The notes under the pieces are model-generated. The model was not told the origin of the DNA. It searched no databases and worked only from the letters and a program-made list of their open reading frames with translations. The position numbers were made by a program, and so were the translations under genes. DNA of 29,363 nucleotides from a virus (lineage: Duplodnaviria > Heunggongvirae > Uroviricota > Caudoviricetes), in IMG/VR virus record IMGVR_UViG_3300029566_000323. One strand, written 5' to 3'. Shown here piece after piece: positions 5,379 through 18,563 of this stretch (the first letter of the stretch is position 1; every line of letters begins with the position of its first letter).

Positions 5379-5669
5379 GTGAGAGTTTATATTGCCGGTC
5401 CAATGACGGGATATGAAAATTTCAACCGTGAGGCGTTTCACAAGGCGGAAGAGGAACTGAAACGGGAAGGGCATACCGTCTTAAACCCGGCAGTACTTCC
5501 GGACGGGCTGACACAGCCGCACTACATGGATATTTGCATGGCAATGATTCGTTGTGTGGATGCGATTTACATGCTGAATGGCTGGCAGCGGTCAGCGGGC
5601 GCTAAGGCAGAGCTGGCACTGGCGGAGAAACTGGGGCATGCGGTGATTTATCAGGAGGTGGCTCAATGA
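5379..5669 (+). CDS. DUF4406-like protein (nucleoside 2-deoxyribosyltransferase-like fold)
   Basis: N-terminus (M)RVYIAGPMTGYENFNREAFHKAEEELKREGHTVLNPAVLP is the hallmark opening of this family; GTG start at 5379 (or 5373) overlapping the upstream stop. Confidence 0.7.
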   Translation: MRVYIAGPMTGYENFNREAFHKAEEELKREGHTVLNPAVLPDGLTQPHYMDICMAMIRCVDAIYMLNGWQRSAGAKAELALAEKLGHAVIYQEVAQ

Positions 5670-6127
5670 GAGAGGTTAACTATGAGGCGCTTCGTGAGGC
5701 AGCACAAAACTATCAGTCGACGCTGGCGTGGTATCAGGCTATCCCGGACAGCCCAAATGCTGAACGGGATTGTGATGCGGCTCTTGCTGCGTTTAAGCGT
5801 CACATCCGTCATCGGGAAGCGGATATTATCGCTGATTTGCTGGATGGACTGGAAGAAGCAAAATCACAACTCAACGAGCAGCGTGAGTATTACGAAGGCG
5901 TTATCTCTGATGGGAGTAAGCGTATTGCTGAACTGGAAGCGCGGGAAGTTCAATTACCGACTCGCTACGACCTTCGATATGGACATCCGATAAATGCAGA
6001 TGAGCGACATGTCATGATACCTAAAGAAAATGGCAGTTGGCTTTACCTGATTGACCTAGAACACGCATTACGCGTCGCTGGCATTCGCATCAAAGGAGAG
6101 GAGCATGGAAATAAAACCAGAGGATGA
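5666..6127 (+). CDS. Hypothetical prophage protein (153 aa)
   Basis: ATG overlaps upstream stop (ATGA); coiled-coil-like central region; no family recognised. Confidence 0.6.
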   Translation: MREVNYEALREAAQNYQSTLAWYQAIPDSPNAERDCDAALAAFKRHIRHREADIIADLLDGLEEAKSQLNEQREYYEGVISDGSKRIAELEAREVQLPTRYDLRYGHPINADERHVMIPKENGSWLYLIDLEHALRVAGIRIKGEEHGNKTRG

Positions 6128-6461
6128 GTTAAGCAATATCGTTTTATTTCCGGTAAAAGAGGATGACCCTCGTAATCAGGTTAATTTTCTTTATGAGTCA
6201 TCGGAAAGACCATATTGTCATCACGCCTCTGTTCGGGTTGACGAAAAAGAGCGTCAGGTCCGCTGTAAAATCTGCGGTGCAGTTGTGGAGCCGTTTGACT
6301 GGATGCTCTCTGTGGCGAAAAGAGAAACCAGACTGGCAGATGATGTAAGGCTATTGCGCCAGGAGGAACAGGAAAGGCGGAAAAATATAGAAAAGTTAAT
6401 TCAGATTGAGCGTAACGCGAAAGCGCGGATATGCAGGGCGACAAAATCCAGAACTGAATAA
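6105..6461 (+). CDS. Hypothetical protein with putative Cys4 zinc ribbon (118 aa)
   Basis: Strong RBS AAAGGAGAGGAG before ATG 6105; cysteines in PYCHH and RCKICG spaced as in a small zinc ribbon; basic coiled C-terminus. Confidence 0.6.
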   Translation: MEIKPEDELSNIVLFPVKEDDPRNQVNFLYESSERPYCHHASVRVDEKERQVRCKICGAVVEPFDWMLSVAKRETRLADDVRLLRQEEQERRKNIEKLIQIERNAKARICRATKSRTE

Positions 6462-6556
6462 TTAAATTTAGCACTGTTAAAAATTTTATCCTTAACCGGA
6501 GGGATTTCTGCACCCTCAGAACATCAGGAGGCCGCCCGAAAGGGCGGTAATGAAAA

Positions 6557-6964
6557 ATGACTGAATTAACAAAAGAGCAATTAATCGAAGAAGCCAAATT
6601 AAAAATAGCGATTGCGAAATGCCACACGAATTCAGGGATGGCACGGGTAGAGGGTGAGTTATTCAAAATTGCACTGGCATCGCTAGAAGCGGAACCGATA
6701 GCGTGGAAATGCGGCGAAAACATAATCCTGTTTAATCCTGACACAGTTGAAGCATACGCAAAACGTGCGGAGATATCACCTAAACCACTATTCGCAGCTC
6801 CACCTGTGCCGGTTGTGTCTGAAGAACTGGTTAAAGCCGTGCGCTTCTATGAAAAGGTTAAGCGTGAAAATCCGCCAGTCGAAACCGGAGCATGGAAAGA
6901 CGCTGTTGACTGGGTGCTCAAAGAGGCCTGCCAGGTTGTAAACACTGGCATCAAAGGAGACTGA
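6557..6964 (+). CDS. Hypothetical protein (135 aa) sharing an N-terminal module with the 328-aa protein at 7328-8314
   Basis: Intact ORF; shares AEPIAW…AAPPVPVVSEE segment with the downstream 328-aa ORF at protein level with divergent codons. Confidence 0.7.
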   Translation: MTELTKEQLIEEAKLKIAIAKCHTNSGMARVEGELFKIALASLEAEPIAWKCGENIILFNPDTVEAYAKRAEISPKPLFAAPPVPVVSEELVKAVRFYEKVKRENPPVETGAWKDAVDWVLKEACQVVNTGIKGD

Positions 6965-6965
6965 T

Positions 6966-7331
6966 ATGGCACTGACGAAAAAACAACGTGCAGAATTGCG
7001 CATGAAGTTTGGCGGTCGCTGTGCTTATTGCGGCTGTGAACTTGGCGAAAAGTGGCATGCAGACCATGTAAAACCGGTCATTCGTTTTAATGGAAATATG
7101 CTTCACCAGGAACGTGACGATATATCCAACATGGTTCCGGCATGCCACCCATGCAATCTGCACAAGCATTGCAGTAGCCTGGAAGACTATCGGCGAATTA
7201 TCAGTGATGGTCGTCGTGAATTCCTTGCGTCCGGGAAAGGCAAAGCGCTGGTTCGTATGGGATTGGTTGAAATGAAATCTGACCCGGTTGTGTTCTGGTT
7301 TGAAAAATATCAAGAAGGGGCTACAGCATGA
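6966..7331 (+). CDS. HNH endonuclease
   Basis: Motifs CAYCGCEL…HADHVKP…MVPACHPCNLHKH (Cys pairs flanking HNH histidines/asparagine); AAGGAG RBS; stop overlaps next start. Confidence 0.85.
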   Translation: MALTKKQRAELRMKFGGRCAYCGCELGEKWHADHVKPVIRFNGNMLHQERDDISNMVPACHPCNLHKHCSSLEDYRRIISDGRREFLASGKGKALVRMGLVEMKSDPVVFWFEKYQEGATA

Positions 7332-8314
7332 CCACTATTACCAATAAGAAACAGTATCCCAGCGAGCAATATCTTAATGAGCTTATCACCAACATAGAGT
7401 TTGCTGCAAGGGCACCAGTTGAAGTCGTGAGCGCAATGGCAGCAGAGCTACAGAAGCGGCGCGAAGCTGATAGCGCAGAACCAGTTGCTTATATTTTCAA
7501 ACATCCGGCCGGGAAATTATTCTGGGCTTTAACGGATGAAAGCAATAAAGAGCAAGCGGACGTTATTCCTGTTTATGCCGCCCCTCCAGTGCCAGTAGTA
7601 TCTGAAGAAAAACCAATGCCTAACCCTCTTAAAATGTACGCGGTCGATGATGTTGCCGCTATTGCAGAGGTGAGAGGCTGGAATGCCTACCGCGCCGCCA
7701 TGCTTCAGAGTCAGGGGGAAGGCAACCCTCATGTAACCCCGGCTCGCCTGCCTGGTGGTTTCACCATTGAGGATGCGAAGGTGTTACATGAAGACCTTGT
7801 ACGTAGCCACATAAGCCAGGCTTTAAGTGGCGAAAAGATGAAAAAGAAAGATCGCGATGCTGATTTGCGCTGGATTCATGGCGTAATAGTTCAGGCCGCG
7901 TGGTTTGTAAAGGCATCACTGGAGCAGAATGCACTATCGGGCAACTCTCCGGTAATTCCTGGTGAGGTGTTGTCCGCAATCCGGGAGGTTGCCAGGATTC
8001 GCGCCGATTTCGATGATTTTGACGGTGACAGGCGAGGTATCGGTGATTGTCTGGATGAGGCCGAGCAAGAGCTTATCGTTACCATTAACAAATATGCCAG
8101 TCAGTTGGCAGTAGAGCCGGTAGTACCTGATGACGTTCTGGAACAGACAGTAGCGTCGCCAGCGCTAGGTAACCAGGTTAGCGAATTAACAATGTGGGTT
8201 AAACGACTGGTCAGTCAACTGAAAAAAGCTCAGCCGGACTGCAAATTACCGGAGAAGGCGATGGATTACCTGAAACGAAATGGACTGATAAGCGTGGAGG
8301 ATGTTTTACGATGA
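7328..8314 (+). CDS. Hypothetical prophage protein (328 aa), N-terminal module paralogous to 6557-6964
   Basis: ATG overlaps HNH stop (ATGA); contains AEPVAYIFKHPAGKLFW…VYAAPPVPVVSEE matching the 135-aa protein; C-terminal 230 aa unrecognised. Confidence 0.75.
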   Translation: MTTITNKKQYPSEQYLNELITNIEFAARAPVEVVSAMAAELQKRREADSAEPVAYIFKHPAGKLFWALTDESNKEQADVIPVYAAPPVPVVSEEKPMPNPLKMYAVDDVAAIAEVRGWNAYRAAMLQSQGEGNPHVTPARLPGGFTIEDAKVLHEDLVRSHISQALSGEKMKKKDRDADLRWIHGVIVQAAWFVKASLEQNALSGNSPVIPGEVLSAIREVARIRADFDDFDGDRRGIGDCLDEAEQELIVTINKYASQLAVEPVVPDDVLEQTVASPALGNQVSELTMWVKRLVSQLKKAQPDCKLPEKAMDYLKRNGLISVEDVLR

Positions 8315-8434
8315 ATATTTAGACTAAAGAGTTTGTAACGCTATGTAAGTGATTTTTTCTGGTTTAGATATTTATATGTCCGGCCAAATTGAGGTGTGTT
8401 TAAATGTTATTGCACATTGATTGTAGGGGGAATA

Positions 8435-8614
8435 ATGAAAAACGCATTGCAGTTTTTGTTTGTTGCGTTCTGGTTGTTCGCATCATGTATGCCCATCATC
8501 TTCACAGCAAGGTATATGGAAAAAATTGATGTTTTGATATTAATGTTTGGACATATAAATGCCCTTTTTTTAGGGGTGTTCATGGCGGTCATGTGCATTG
8601 AATACTGGCGGTAA
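8435..8614 (+). CDS. Small hydrophobic protein (59 aa, two predicted TM helices)
   Basis: AGGGGGAA RBS 4 nt before ATG 8435; product MKNALQFLFVAFWLFASCMPIIFTARYMEKIDVLILMFGHINALFLGVFMAVMCIEYWR has two hydrophobic stretches; lies in an AT-rich islet flanked by direct repeats. Confidence 0.45.
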   Translation: MKNALQFLFVAFWLFASCMPIIFTARYMEKIDVLILMFGHINALFLGVFMAVMCIEYWR

Positions 8615-8843
8615 ATACAGCGAACGCCATTGGTTTAGTTGGATATTTACTGTGCCGGACAAAAACGGTTTGCGGGGAAATCTTAGTTAAGTAGAATAAC
8701 TGCGGGTGCTTGAGGCTATCTGTCTCAGGCATGAACACCAAAAGGCAGATAGAGAAAAGCCCCAGTTAACATTACGCGTCCTGCAAGACGCTTAACATTA
8801 ATCTGAGGCCATATCTATGCGACACATAGAGATTAGCCTCTTA

Positions 8844-8890
8844 NNNNNNNNNNNNNNNNNNNNNNNNNNNNNNNNNNNNNNNNNNNNNNN
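8844..8890. other. Run of 47 N (assembly gap or masked bases)
   Basis: Literal n characters in the sequence; interrupts the hok-type toxin locus. Confidence 1.
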
Positions 8891-9027
8891 TGTTAATCGC
8901 CCTGATCGTCATCTGTTTAACCGTCATAGTGACGGCACTGGTAACGAGGAAAGACCTCTGCGAGGTACGAATCCGAACCGGCCAGACGGAGGTCGCTGTC
9001 TTCACAGCTTACGAACCTGAGGAGTAA
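8891..9027 (+). CDS. hokD: Hok-family type I toxin (HokD/RelF-like), 5' end hidden in the N run
   Basis: Translation after the gap reads LIALIVICLTVIVTALVTRKDLCEVRIRTGQTEVAVFTAYEPEE*, matching remembered HokD/RelF; upstream leader resembles hok mRNA 5' end; overlapping mok-like frame (8817-9020) also open. Confidence 0.8.
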
Positions 9028-9096
9028 GAGACCAGGCGAGGGAGAAATCCCTCGCCACCTCTGATGTGGCAGGCATCCTCAACGCACCCGCACTTA

Positions 9097-9120
9097 ACCC
9101 GCTTCGGCGGGTTTTTGTTT
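9097..9120 (+). terminator. Rho-independent terminator at 3' end of hok mRNA
   Basis: ACCCGC-TTCG-GCGGGT hairpin followed by TTTTTGTTTTT. Confidence 0.7.
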
Positions 9121-9243
9121 TTATTTTCAACGCATTTGAAGTTCTGGACGGTGCCGGAATAGAATCAAAAATACTTAAGTAGCGCGCAGGGATAAGAGGG
9201 ATGGTCCCTTAAAGGGGAGAGCTAATTATCCGGAAGGATTCTG

Positions 9244-9495
9244 ATGATGAACATCGAAGAACTGCGTAAAATTTTTTGTGAAGATGGCCTCTATGCTGTG
9301 TGCGTTGAAAATGGAAATATTGTTAGCCATTACCGCATTGTGTGTTTGCAAAAAAATGGGGCTGCGTTAATTAATTTTGTGGATGCCCGAGTGACGGACG
9401 GATTTATCTTGCACGACGGTGAGTTTGTCACTTCATTACAGGCATTGAAAGAGATCGGAATAAAAGCTGGCTTTTCTGCTTTTTCAGAAGAATAA
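9244..9495 (+). CDS. Small prophage protein (83 aa), possibly the Qin rem homologue by position
   Basis: GGAAGGA RBS, tandem ATG start; 83 aa and located between the hok locus and the DUF968 gene, the position and length of rem in Qin; identity by synteny only. Confidence 0.55.
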   Translation: MMNIEELRKIFCEDGLYAVCVENGNIVSHYRIVCLQKNGAALINFVDARVTDGFILHDGEFVTSLQALKEIGIKAGFSAFSEE

Positions 9496-9561
9496 ACTCA
9501 TCTACAATCTTGCGCGGGGCTGAACTCCCGCTGAGTAACACCGTGCCACCGGAGAAAACCG

Positions 9562-9840
9562 ATGGCACGCAACGCAAAATATTACAATCATGATAATTCG
9601 ACCGTTCTTGCCCACACGCACGAGCGGTATTCTCATGCATTTAAGTCAGACTGGTACCAGCATCCCCCATGCACTGAAGAACAGGCCGAGTGGCTAATTC
9701 AGTGCTACCGCAGACACGGATACGAGATTAAGAAAGCCCTCAGCCTCGATTATCGTCACTGGATAATCTCCGTCAGGCTCCCTTACTCCGAACGGCCACC
9801 GCGTCCGTCCCGCACATTCCAGCAACGCATCTGGAGGTAA
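9562..9840 (+). CDS. Hypothetical protein (92 aa)
   Basis: GGAG RBS before ATG 9562; stop is 1 nt before the DUF968 GTG start; may be an upstream fragment of a longer DUF968-type gene in the +1 frame. Confidence 0.45.
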   Translation: MARNAKYYNHDNSTVLAHTHERYSHAFKSDWYQHPPCTEEQAEWLIQCYRRHGYEIKKALSLDYRHWIISVRLPYSERPPRPSRTFQQRIWR

Positions 9841-9841
9841 C

Positions 9842-10900
9842 GTGCGGGTATTACTTCGACCTGTTCTGGTACCGGAACTTGGGCTGGTGGTGCTAAAACC
9901 GGGCCGTGAATCCATGCCGGTATTCCACAATACCCGGGTACTGGTGGAGCCGGAACCGAAAAGCATGCGTAATCTGTCGTCCGGGGTCGTTCCTGCCGTT
10001 CGCCAGCCGCTGGCGGAGGATAAATCATTACTGCCATTTTTCAGCGACGAACGAGTGATTCGTGCTGCTGGTGGCGCTGGCGCATTGTCTGACTGGTTAC
10101 TGCGCCATGTTAAATCCTGCCAGTGGCCACACGGCGATTATCACCACAGTGAAACCGTCATTCACCGTTATGGTACCGGCGCAATGGTGTTGTGCTGGCA
10201 CTGCGACAACCAGCTGCGCGACCAGACCTCCGAATCACTCGGGCAACTTGCTCACCAAAACCTGTCTGCATGGATGATTGACGTCATACGCCATGCAATG
10301 AATGGCTCGCAGGAACGGGAATTATCGCTGGCTGAATTATCCTGGTGGGCGGTCCGCAATCAGGTGGCGGACGCGCTACCGGAAGCGGTATTACGTCGTT
10401 CGCTGGGGTTGCGTGCGGAAAAAATCCGCTCAATGTACCGTGAAAGCGACATCGTACCGGGAGAGCAGACCGCCACCAGCATACTGAAACAGCGCACAAA
10501 AAATCTTGCGCCGCTGCCTCACGCCCACCAGCAACAGAACCCACCACAGGAAAAGACGGTGGTCAGCATTGCCGTTGATCCGGAATCTCCGGCTCAGTAT
10601 CTCCAGCGCCAGAAACCACAACGGGAAGAGATGCCTGTATACACGCGCTGGGTAAAAACGCAGAAATGCATGACGTGTGGCAATCAGGCAGATGATCCGC
10701 ATCACATCATTGGTCATGGACTGGGAGGGATGGGAACAAAGGCTGACGATTTGTTTGTTATTCCGCTGTGTCGTAAATGCCATAACGAACTACACGCCGG
10801 GGTAAAAGATTTTGAAGAAAAACACGGTAGTCAGTTGTTGTTGCTGATTCGTTTTTTAATGCACGCGAGAAATTCGGGTGTTCTGAAGTGGAAAGCATAA
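9842..10900 (+). CDS. ydfU: DUF968-family protein (YdfU-like)
   Basis: 352-aa ORF with C-terminal Cys/His cluster CMTCGNQADDPHHIIGHGLGGMGTKADDLFVIPLCRKCHNELH; position between rem-like gene and rusA/Q matches Qin ydfU; GTG start with GGAGG RBS. Confidence 0.7.
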   Translation: MRVLLRPVLVPELGLVVLKPGRESMPVFHNTRVLVEPEPKSMRNLSSGVVPAVRQPLAEDKSLLPFFSDERVIRAAGGAGALSDWLLRHVKSCQWPHGDYHHSETVIHRYGTGAMVLCWHCDNQLRDQTSESLGQLAHQNLSAWMIDVIRHAMNGSQERELSLAELSWWAVRNQVADALPEAVLRRSLGLRAEKIRSMYRESDIVPGEQTATSILKQRTKNLAPLPHAHQQQNPPQEKTVVSIAVDPESPAQYLQRQKPQREEMPVYTRWVKTQKCMTCGNQADDPHHIIGHGLGGMGTKADDLFVIPLCRKCHNELHAGVKDFEEKHGSQLLLLIRFLMHARNSGVLKWKA

Positions 10901-11269
10901 ATGACCGAACGCATAGAATTTGTTTTGCCTTACTCGCCGACGGTGAACACTTACTGGCGACGCCGTGGCAGCACATATTTTGTATCAAAAGCCGGGGAGC
11001 GTTATCGCCGGGCAGTGGCGCTTATTGTTCGCCAGCAGCGACTGAAATTAAGCCTGTCCGGACGGCTGGCAATAAAAATTATTGCAGAGCCACCGGATAA
11101 GCGTCGTCGTGACCTGGACAATATTCTGAAAGCACCACTGGATGCGCTGACGCACGCGGGGTTGTTAATGGACGATGAGCAGTTTGATGAAATCAATATT
11201 GTACGTGGCCAGCCAGTATCTGGTGGACGGCTGGAGATAAGAATTACAGAGGTGGGTGTGCATGAATAA
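10901..11269 (+). CDS. rusA: Holliday junction resolvase RusA
   Basis: Product aligns along its length with remembered E. coli RusA (…PPDKRRRDLDNILKAPLDALTHAGLLMDDEQ…GGRLEIRITEVG vs …[31 protein letters not shown]…GGRLELTITEMG). Confidence 0.9.
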   Translation: MTERIEFVLPYSPTVNTYWRRRGSTYFVSKAGERYRRAVALIVRQQRLKLSLSGRLAIKIIAEPPDKRRRDLDNILKAPLDALTHAGLLMDDEQFDEINIVRGQPVSGGRLEIRITEVGVHE

Positions 11270-18053: not shown

Positions 18054-18563
18054 GTGGCTACGCAGACTGAAGTTGCCAGGCATTTAAGTCTGACCGATCG
18101 CCAGCTTCGCAGATTGCAGAAATTGCCGGGTGCCCCGATATCGAATAAGCGAGGGCAACTGGATCTGGATGCCTGGCGCGATTTTTACATATCGTATCTG
18201 AGAAGAAGTAAAAACGATGTGCCTGATGGCGATAGCGAAGACGACTATGAGGAGAAATTGCTTATTGCCAGATGGGAACTGACAGCAGAACAGGCTGTTA
18301 CACAGCAGTTAAAAAATGAGGTGTCAAAAGGAAAACTTATTGATACCGGGTTCTGTATTTTTGCCCTCAGCAAGCTGGCAATGGCGTTATCCAGTACGCT
18401 TGATTCCATCCCTTTATCCATGCAGCGACAGTTTCCTGATTTAACACCGCGCCATCTTGACCATCTGAAAACCCTTATTGCGAAGGGGGCAAATCAGTGT
18501 GCGCGGGCGGGGGATAAATTACCGGATTTACTCGATGAATATATCAGAGCAACAACTGAATAA
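18054..18563 (+). CDS. nu1: Terminase small subunit (Nu1-like)
   Basis: Aligns with lambda Nu1 in C-terminal two thirds (…FCIFALSKLAMALSSTLDSIPLSMQRQFPDLTPRHLDHLKTLIAK… vs …FCTFVLSRIAGEIASILDGLPLSVQRRFPELENRHVDFLKRDIIK…); GTG start with GAGGTGAGGAG RBS right after cos. Confidence 0.9.
   Translation: MATQTEVARHLSLTDRQLRRLQKLPGAPISNKRGQLDLDAWRDFYISYLRRSKNDVPDGDSEDDYEEKLLIARWELTAEQAVTQQLKNEVSKGKLIDTGFCIFALSKLAMALSSTLDSIPLSMQRQFPDLTPRHLDHLKTLIAKGANQCARAGDKLPDLLDEYIRATTE

Follow-up and report, generated by a model that had tools for sequence, protein, structure and literature searches.

The window analysed here is a 29,363-nucleotide (nt) stretch of DNA, IMG/VR virus record IMGVR_UViG_3300029566_000323, and is a Rac/lambda-like Escherichia coli prophage. 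Its + strand carries a trio of open reading frames (ORFs): ORF1 (6557-6964, 135 amino acids [aa]), an HNH endonuclease gene (6966-7331, 121 aa) and ORF3 (7328-8314, 328 aa). We conclude, with a probability of roughly 0.78, that this trio is one assortment among tandem mosaic accessory genes and not a dedicated three-gene system. The HNH gene would be an independent cassette lodged at a conserved joint, and ORF1 and ORF3 would be paralogues within a very large family of lambdoid-prophage accessory proteins resembling Ea22, EaA and DUF551 proteins. The kinds of genes, the HNH annotation and the mosaicism of Ea22 and DUF551 proteins were known already; what is added here is the joint sequence, the insertion or deletion of an exact ORF, the deletion scar and the placing of crossover points at peptide motifs.

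A first-pass annotation, made from the letters alone, had placed the three genes at these positions with adjacent or overlapping stop and start codons, and this proved correct. The ORF1 stop codon TGA (6962-6964) lies 1 nt before the HNH start codon at 6966, giving TGAtATG, and the ORF3 start codon overlaps the HNH stop in ATGA (7328-7331). Sequences resembling a Shine-Dalgarno (SD) site precede the starts of HNH (AAAGGAG) and ORF3 (GAAGGGG). The nuclease gene and its boundaries comprise the following features.

6966-7331, + strand: stand-alone HNH gene (zinc-finger endonuclease of the beta-beta-alpha-Me kind), 121 aa, an optional cassette.
7020-7169, + strand: HNH catalytic core, residues 19-68 (C19-x2-C22, D33-H34, N55, C60-x2-C63-N64), with every catalytic residue and both CxxC zinc-ligand pairs invariant in 55 homologues.
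6953-6968, + strand: left joint, AAAGGAGACTGATATG, with the HNH SD, the ORF1 stop and the HNH start; cross-locus conservation begins here.
7328-7342, + strand: right joint, ATGACCACTATTACC (MTTIT), the end of cross-locus conservation.
7281-7331, + strand: 3' tail of the HNH gene, ending in PVVFWFEKYQEGATA before the stop; it holds the ORF3 SD, and some 325 further complete E. coli genomes have nothing else left of HNH.

The HNH sequence was 95 to 100% identical across 80 IMG/VR loci, where it was accompanied by 43 distinct ORF sequences upstream and 43 downstream. The trio is not a conserved unit, because an unrelated 72-aa DUF4014 membrane protein is encoded upstream of HNH in 58 of the 80 loci (a member of the accessory family in only about 7) and HNH-less tandems of family genes are common. 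Of the embedded-nuclease cassette described in the first-pass annotation, the discrete cassette, present or absent as an exact ORF, thus stands, and the dedicated three-gene unit does not. Column conservation was close to 100% within the HNH ORF and dropped to background level some 13 nt outside it at either end, ahead of the ATG and past the stop.

The same boundaries were seen from the other side, in loci that lack the nuclease. An HNH-less joint, AARGGRGANTGANATGACNACT, of the form AAAGGAGAnTGAnATG followed by ACnACT, was present in at least 120 viral contigs, joining Ea22-like or ORF1-like genes directly to genes whose products start with MTT. Two loci, L202 and L101, are matched HNH-less sites: their left 150 nt are 89 to 90% identical to the 3' end of ORF1 and their right 150 nt 95% identical to the 5' end of ORF3, with AAAGGAGAGTGATATG running straight into ACCACTATAACC at the junction. 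A second set shows HNH present or absent between homologous flanks in the same manner, L050 having the gene and L198, L170, L124 and L117 being its HNH-less counterparts. The window itself contains no intact HNH-less joint. When a synthetic HNH-less query (ORF1 3' end plus ORF3 5' end) was run against complete E. coli genomes, all of the matches listed were in two pieces and contained HNH.

Loss of the cassette could be followed in closely related genomes. The sister prophage L211 matches the window at 98.7% identity as far as position 6555, beyond which it has a different set of eight small genes. Full HNH was found in 385 of 5,426 complete E. coli genomes, and about 325 more retain only its last ~50 nt, so that the remnant is about as frequent as the intact gene. 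In L211 (2381-2548) and L210 (2381-2515), this tail (7281-7331 in the window) is fused in frame to a family N-terminal module, LASLEAEPV being followed by VFWFEKYQEGATA and a stop in a 55-aa ORF. By all appearances, the fusion is a deletion scar, with the crossover within a shared CCGGTTG. A 92%-identical HNH orthologue in Salmonella (L203 3001-3369) starts with MTTITKKQRAEL instead of MALTKKQRAEL; to judge from these codons, the nuclease gene has itself acquired the gene-start joint of the array, ATGACCACTATTACC (MTTIT).

Two further observations concern gene starts and joints. The cassettes that replace HNH in L211 (2107-2370) and L210 (2134-2370) begin with MATLTKKEQ and MATLKKED, close to the MALTKKQ of HNH, and the first cassette codons appear to be a shared joint as well. 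In Shigella sonnei, a 194-aa protein (P0242) consists of the DUF4014 membrane protein (PF13198) fused to HNH, presumably because the TGAtATG joint lost its TGA.

That the middle gene encodes an HNH nuclease, as first annotated, was confirmed by a match to Pfam HNH (PF01844) at 31.7 bits, against a gathering threshold of 21.4 (E=1.8e-7); all 55 homologues match as well. Among 45 alleles, pN/pS was 0.086 and pS 0.12, and at least 77 of 82 loci have an uninterrupted ORF. The gene is predicted to encode an active nuclease under purifying selection. Prophages of Salmonella, Yersinia and Klebsiella have orthologues of 61 to 92% identity at this point of the operon, always between the replication genes and NinX/NinG/Q, and in Yersinia a NinX gene lies downstream of HNH.

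An intron- or intein-borne HNH was ruled out: an Rfam search of 5500-10000 returned sok only, HNH is equipped with an SD, start and stop of its own, and the ORFs on either side are complete. Membership of the trio in a PADLOC-catalogued defence system was likewise ruled out, with no system-level match. Against the systems compared (Septu PtuAB, retron HNH effectors and PDC-M01), HNH gave weak matches limited to the HNH domain (PtuB, 2.8e-8, ~70 residues), and no PtuA ATPase or retron lies nearby; PADLOC yielded nothing to connect the trio with any known system of exclusion or defence, and the notion of an exclusion cassette found no support. In the literature, we found no HNH linked to the exo-xis or nin accessory region.

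The second part of our conclusion concerns the two outer proteins, whose features are listed here.

6557-6964, + strand: ORF1, 135 aa, a short Ea22/EaA(DUF551)-like mosaic family member (phrog_660, 1.1e-50), ending in TGIKGD before the stop.
6689-6706, + strand: AEPIAW, residues 45-50 of ORF1, a hallmark motif of the family and, by sequence comparison, a point of mosaic crossover.
6794-6826, + strand: Pro-rich linker AAPPVPVVSEE, residues 80-90 of ORF1; inside it, at the PVVSEE codons (~6809), the L202 homology block begins.
7328-8314, + strand: ORF3, 328 aa, a long mosaic member of the ORF1 family, with five modules, A to E.
7328-7474, 7475-7711, 7712-7936, 7937-8149 and 8150-8311, + strand: ORF3 modules A, B, C, D and E, delimited by BLAST segment ends.
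7475-7492 and 7577-7609, + strand: AEPVAY and AAPPVPVVSEE motifs of ORF3 module B.
8150-8314, + strand: C-terminal module E, ending in ELTMWVKRLVSQLKKAQPDCKLPEKAMDYLKRNGLISVEDVLR before the stop; it also terminates 187-aa ORF1 relatives and a 114-aa gene after HNH in Stx phages.

The first-pass annotation had noted that ORF1 and ORF3 share an N-terminal module encoded by different codons. BLASTP aligned ORF1 45-90 with ORF3 50-94 (22 identities in 50, E=1e-5), and a Smith-Waterman alignment spanning ORF1 6-90 and ORF3 12-94 scored 76, compared with 33.5+-5.5 for shuffled sequences (z=7.7). None of 2,000 shuffles scored as high: the match is not a chance one. AAPPVPVVSEE is the same in both proteins, with different codons at 7 of its 11 positions, and 20 of the 31 identical aligned residues are encoded by different codons. 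ORF1 1-90 also matched the N termini of 80 of 120 ORF3 homologues, at 35 to 48% identity and down to E=4e-15. Thus, AEPIAW/AEPVAY and AAPPVPVVSEE are genuine parts of the module, which is wider than had been described (ORF1 1-90). Profile-profile alignment (hhalign) matched the whole of ORF1 to ORF3 1-128, at a probability of 99.9% that is inflated by five sequences common to both alignments; our homology claim is based on BLASTP, the homologue matches and the shuffle test. These establish a shared N-terminal module that is preserved at the peptide level.

Of 240 homologues, 198 have a LEAEPVA-like motif and 148 the [YF]AAPPxP Pro linker. In the matched sites L202 and L101, the left homology block starts at PVVSEE, and AEPV closes the right one, which makes both motifs mosaic crossover points; LEAEPVA and AAPPVPVVPE are family-wide hallmarks that coincide with them. 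The family architecture consists of an N-terminal helical hairpin, a small beta-hairpin between LEAEPVA and [YF]AAPPxPVVPE, and interchangeable C-terminal modules. In the AlphaFold2 model of ORF1 (pLDDT 73), a helical hairpin and a beta-hairpin are followed by a short helix, the proline linker and, at the C terminus, another helical hairpin. A Foldseek search of the model against PDB gave no informative match (best E=0.49), and a search of BFVD gave one match at E<=0.001 (8.6e-4, TM 0.32), all its matches being unnamed or uncharacterised phage proteins.

The N-terminal module is most likely an oligomerisation or scaffold part that presents variable C-terminal effector domains. We favour this role by analogy, on account of the published architecture of Ea22 and of a Salmonella protein in which the family module is fused to a pyrophosphohydrolase domain. 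That 412-aa protein (L204 1285-2523) has the N-terminal module, with AAAEPVLY and LYTAPPAS, and a dATP/dGTP pyrophosphohydrolase domain (PF04447); the module can therefore also carry an enzymatic effector domain.

Variable C termini, also proposed at first reading, were apparent in both proteins. The high-scoring segments of ORF3 repeatedly break in BLAST at residues 50, 128, 204 and 274, and ORF3 therefore divides into five modules. Its homologues form about 8,000 clusters at 90% identity, nearly all of them E. coli prophage proteins and most with a C-terminal DUF551; ORF3 1-128 is 92 to 96% identical to the N termini of DUF551 proteins. Relatives of 187 aa consist of ORF1 1-125 followed by the ORF3 C-terminal module (ORF3 281-328). 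The phrog_660 profile matches ORF1 over positions 3-143 and, separately, the last 48 residues of ORF3 over positions 146-193. Other ORF1 relatives are fused to PF13935 (P0159), and a profile of ORF1 relatives collected 2,499 clusters at 50% identity, with varying match positions in proteins of 66 to 423 aa. Neither ORF1 nor ORF3 matched Pfam, including PF13935 (Ead/Ea22-like) and PF04448 (DUF551), and ORF3 cut into its modules gave only noise in Pfam at E<=5. NCBIfam and PADLOC searches with the two proteins returned nothing, and their sequences had zero matches to PDB chains at E<=1.

The full-length ORF3 differs from its database record. In identical RefSeq genomes, PGAP starts the gene at the ATG at 7700, yielding a 204-aa protein (WP_369759143.1) and leaving 369 nt (7332-7699) unannotated. 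The 328-aa form is supported as the likelier one because of the ATGA overlap, the conserved MTTIT joint, and the 92 to 96% identity of residues 1-128 to annotated DUF551 N termini, and the annotation of ORF3 is corrected accordingly from the truncated RefSeq form.

The trio lies in the early-right (replication-to-Q) operon, as is clear from the surrounding gene order. Upstream are cI/cro, YdaT, O/P-like replication genes, DUF1627, DUF977, DUF4406, an Ead/Ea22-like gene and a 118-aa gene, and downstream are hok/sok (hokD), rem, DUF968, RusA, Q, lysis genes and terminase. Almost every gene of the operon abuts or overlaps its neighbour, so that coupling, first seen as a property of the trio, is the rule throughout. 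A promoter and terminator scan detected no more sites than in shuffled sequence and gave no sign of a transcription unit belonging to the trio. The 2-kb trio region is 100% identical in 128 of the 5,426 complete E. coli genomes.

We propose the following mechanism. The operon would carry an array of small accessory genes that are coupled in translation, and HNH would be a self-contained cassette of 362 nt placed exactly within the conserved joint AAAGGAGAnTGAnATG followed by ACnACTwTTACC. The cassette would use the SD and ATG of the joint and would give the downstream gene a new SD and an ATGA overlap. Lambdoid phages and prophages would exchange such cassettes, and protein modules, by recombination at short conserved joints and linker motifs, and the agent would likely be relaxed homologous recombination by phage enzymes of the RecET/Red type. 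Exchange at joints and linkers fits the experimental demonstration that lambdoid mosaics arise mainly from divergence-tolerant homologous recombination, aided by orf and rap (PMC3945230). If correct, this would provide a base-pair view of how lambdoid accessory genes are assembled, in which joints (SD, stop, start and first five codons) and peptide linkers are the ends of the exchanged blocks.

Several observations weigh against this interpretation. A modular gene starting with MTT lies immediately downstream of HNH in 77 of the 80 loci, and a Klebsiella prophage whose HNH is 61% identical has the same order, namely, a protein that ends in AGIKVEAE and resembles the C termini of Ea22-like proteins, HNH, and a DUF551 protein. 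That HNH and the family have stayed adjacent for so long might be due to a functional link or to a preferred target site and not to random assortment. The recombination mechanism is read from sequence patterns, and the roles suggested for all three proteins are putative. The AlphaFold2 model of ORF3 was unusable for a fold search (pLDDT 42, pTM 0.27).

The main rival is that HNH is a free-standing homing endonuclease. Its target would be the HNH-less joint AAAGGAGAnTGAnATGACnACT of lambdoid genomes that share its cell, as co-residents or by co-infection; double-strand-break repair would copy it into the cut, and the shuffling of neighbouring family genes would be stimulated as well. This is plausible, although we consider it unlikely. 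An exact ORF that is present or absent at one conserved joint, matched HNH-less sites with homologous flanks of about 150 bp, near-identical HNH genes in many contexts, intact catalytic residues under purifying selection, and a joint that is split by the insertion all fit homing. However, gene-boundary exchange is equally sharp in the non-nuclease cassettes of the same array, so that homing is not needed to explain the pattern. No co-conversion tract was seen, identity being lost within about 13 nt of either HNH end in most contexts. One locus, L063, has both HNH and an intact joint 380 bp downstream, and the joint was not depleted where the nuclease is present (1 of 80 HNH-containing loci, compared with a second joint in 1 of the 120 HNH-less loci listed). 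The pS of 0.12 and the synteny across genera suggest long vertical maintenance instead.

More doubtful still is the specific form of this idea, in which an active homing-type HNH would recognise the Ea22/EaA joint AAAGGAGAnTGAnATGACnACTwTTACC and drive both its own spread and the shuffling of Ea22, EaA and DUF551 modules. If it were true, the joint would be a nuclease-driven diversification hotspot in temperate phages. Cleavage of the HNH-less joint by HNH would tie a nuclease to mosaic formation; otherwise, the trio is another assortment of known cassette types.

We give little credence to a functional module in which the paralogues hetero-oligomerise through their N-terminal helical module and recruit or regulate the nuclease, as an effector of exclusion, anti-defence or the lysis-lysogeny decision. 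Translational coupling, the shared N-terminal module, the recurrence of HNH followed by a family gene (Klebsiella included) and the location in an early operon, a site of accessory, host-directed functions, would be in line with it. The composition of the loci argues otherwise, as the upstream gene is the unrelated DUF4014 gene in 58 of 80 loci and the downstream one NinX in Yersinia, HNH-less family arrays are common, and about 325 genomes have lost HNH but retained its neighbours. The PADLOC comparison, with weak HNH-domain matches and none at system level, also speaks against such a module.

It is very improbable that ORF1 and ORF3 are halves of one ancestral phrog_660-type gene (187 to 193 aa) split by insertion of HNH. 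They share a reading frame, phrog_660 covers ORF1 (3-143) and the ORF3 C terminus (146-193), and the 187-aa proteins combine ORF1 1-125 with the ORF3 281-328 module. Nevertheless, ORF1-type ends (WVLKEACQAVNIGIKGE before the stop) also occur without HNH, directly before MTT genes; ORF3 possesses a complete N-terminal module of its own, with 230 residues besides; the linker of the 187-aa proteins, CAVILGKADNPLASS, is missing from the window; and the inserted or deleted segment is exactly the HNH ORF rather than gene internal. The survey contradicts a split gene, which we rejected. HNH proteins are common partners of phage terminases, but a terminase-associated packaging nuclease of the HK97 gp74 type, a possibility raised in the first-pass annotation and the least probable of all, was rejected despite its similar small size, as HNH is an early-operon gene, with the Q region and lysis genes in the roughly 10.7 kb that separate it from the small terminase gene downstream (terS, 18054-18563), has orthologues always located between the replication genes and NinX/NinG/Q, and is missing from sister prophages.

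Some neighbouring elements deserve description. The start of ORF1 has an unusual leader.

6526-6559, + strand: ORF1 leader, with AGGAGG (6526-6531), a predicted hairpin GCCGCCC-GAAA-GGGCGGT (6531-6548, 7-bp stem) and the ATG at 6557.

The ATG is about 25 nt from the strong AGGAGG, with the GC hairpin and its GAAA loop between them. This leader (6454-6568) recurs before two unrelated genes of phage ArgO145 (L001 4335-4441 at 88% and L001 3328-3359 at 94%). Perhaps it represents another kind of conserved joint, or else serves to bring start codon and SD close to each other. Near-upstream of the trio, the Ea22-like gene at 5666-6127 matches PF13935 (6.3e-12).

Downstream, an AT-rich segment between ORF3 and hok/sok (8396-8614) contains an ORF (ATG at 8436) for a hydrophobic protein of 59 to 72 aa, MKNALQFLFVAFWLF, which is unannotated in the identical RefSeq genome and may be a small moron-like membrane protein. 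The hok/sok type I toxin-antitoxin locus occupies 8704-9028, with sok RNA at 8704-8861 (Rfam, 81 bits) and the hokD start masked by a run of 47 N (8845-8891). A second HNH-type protein of the operon is DUF968 (9842-11269, 352 aa, phrog_96, with an HNHc_6 match), directly followed by the RusA resolvase gene; NinG is absent from the prophage of the window.

Comparison with known systems places the trio among several of them. T-even phages have free-standing HNH homing endonuclease genes. The HNH gene described here is likewise a small stand-alone ORF between genes, variably present in related genomes and with precise boundaries. It differs from them in having neither its own promoter nor a co-conversion tract, and in its strong long-term purifying selection and cross-genus synteny. 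The closest solved structure by sequence is the minimal nuclease Gme HNH (PDB 4H9D; profile E=1.5e-4), which has the zinc-finger HNH core in common but aligns over that core of about 50 residues only and is uninformative on specificity.

The gene has the same operon neighbourhood as NinG, and its CxxC...DH...N...CxxC-N layout resembles T4 endonuclease VII. Similarity was weak to NinG (18 of 55 homologues, best E=1.5e-4) and to PHROG families named endonuclease VII. Unlike lambda Rap (NinG, PF05766), which contributes to mosaic formation (PMC3945230), the HNH protein scored 18.9 bits with the NinG profile, below the gathering threshold of 25.4. It also co-occurs with true NinG in Yersinia and Klebsiella prophages, indicating that it is not a NinG substitute.

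ORF1 and ORF3 are reminiscent of Ea22 of lambda and Stx phages (Ead/Ea22-like, IPR025153), which are early lambdoid accessory proteins with a helical or coiled N terminus and swapped C-terminal domains. Ea22 has a coiled N-terminal part, swapped C-terminal domains and mosaic genes, with one variant (V2) carrying DUF551; it forms tetramers and is pro-lysogenic (PMC10834534). In contrast to Ea22, ORF1 and ORF3 have no PF13935 or PF04448 match and are located between replication genes and Q rather than in the exo-xis region. Similar too are prophage proteins of the P22 EaA or DUF551 (PF04448) type, as which most ORF3 homologues are annotated. They have the MTT[FI]T start, LEAEPVA and Pro-linker motifs in common with ORF3, and their N-terminal and middle modules are up to 96% identical to its own; where they end in DUF551, ORF3 ends in the 48-aa E module and ORF1 after its second helical hairpin.

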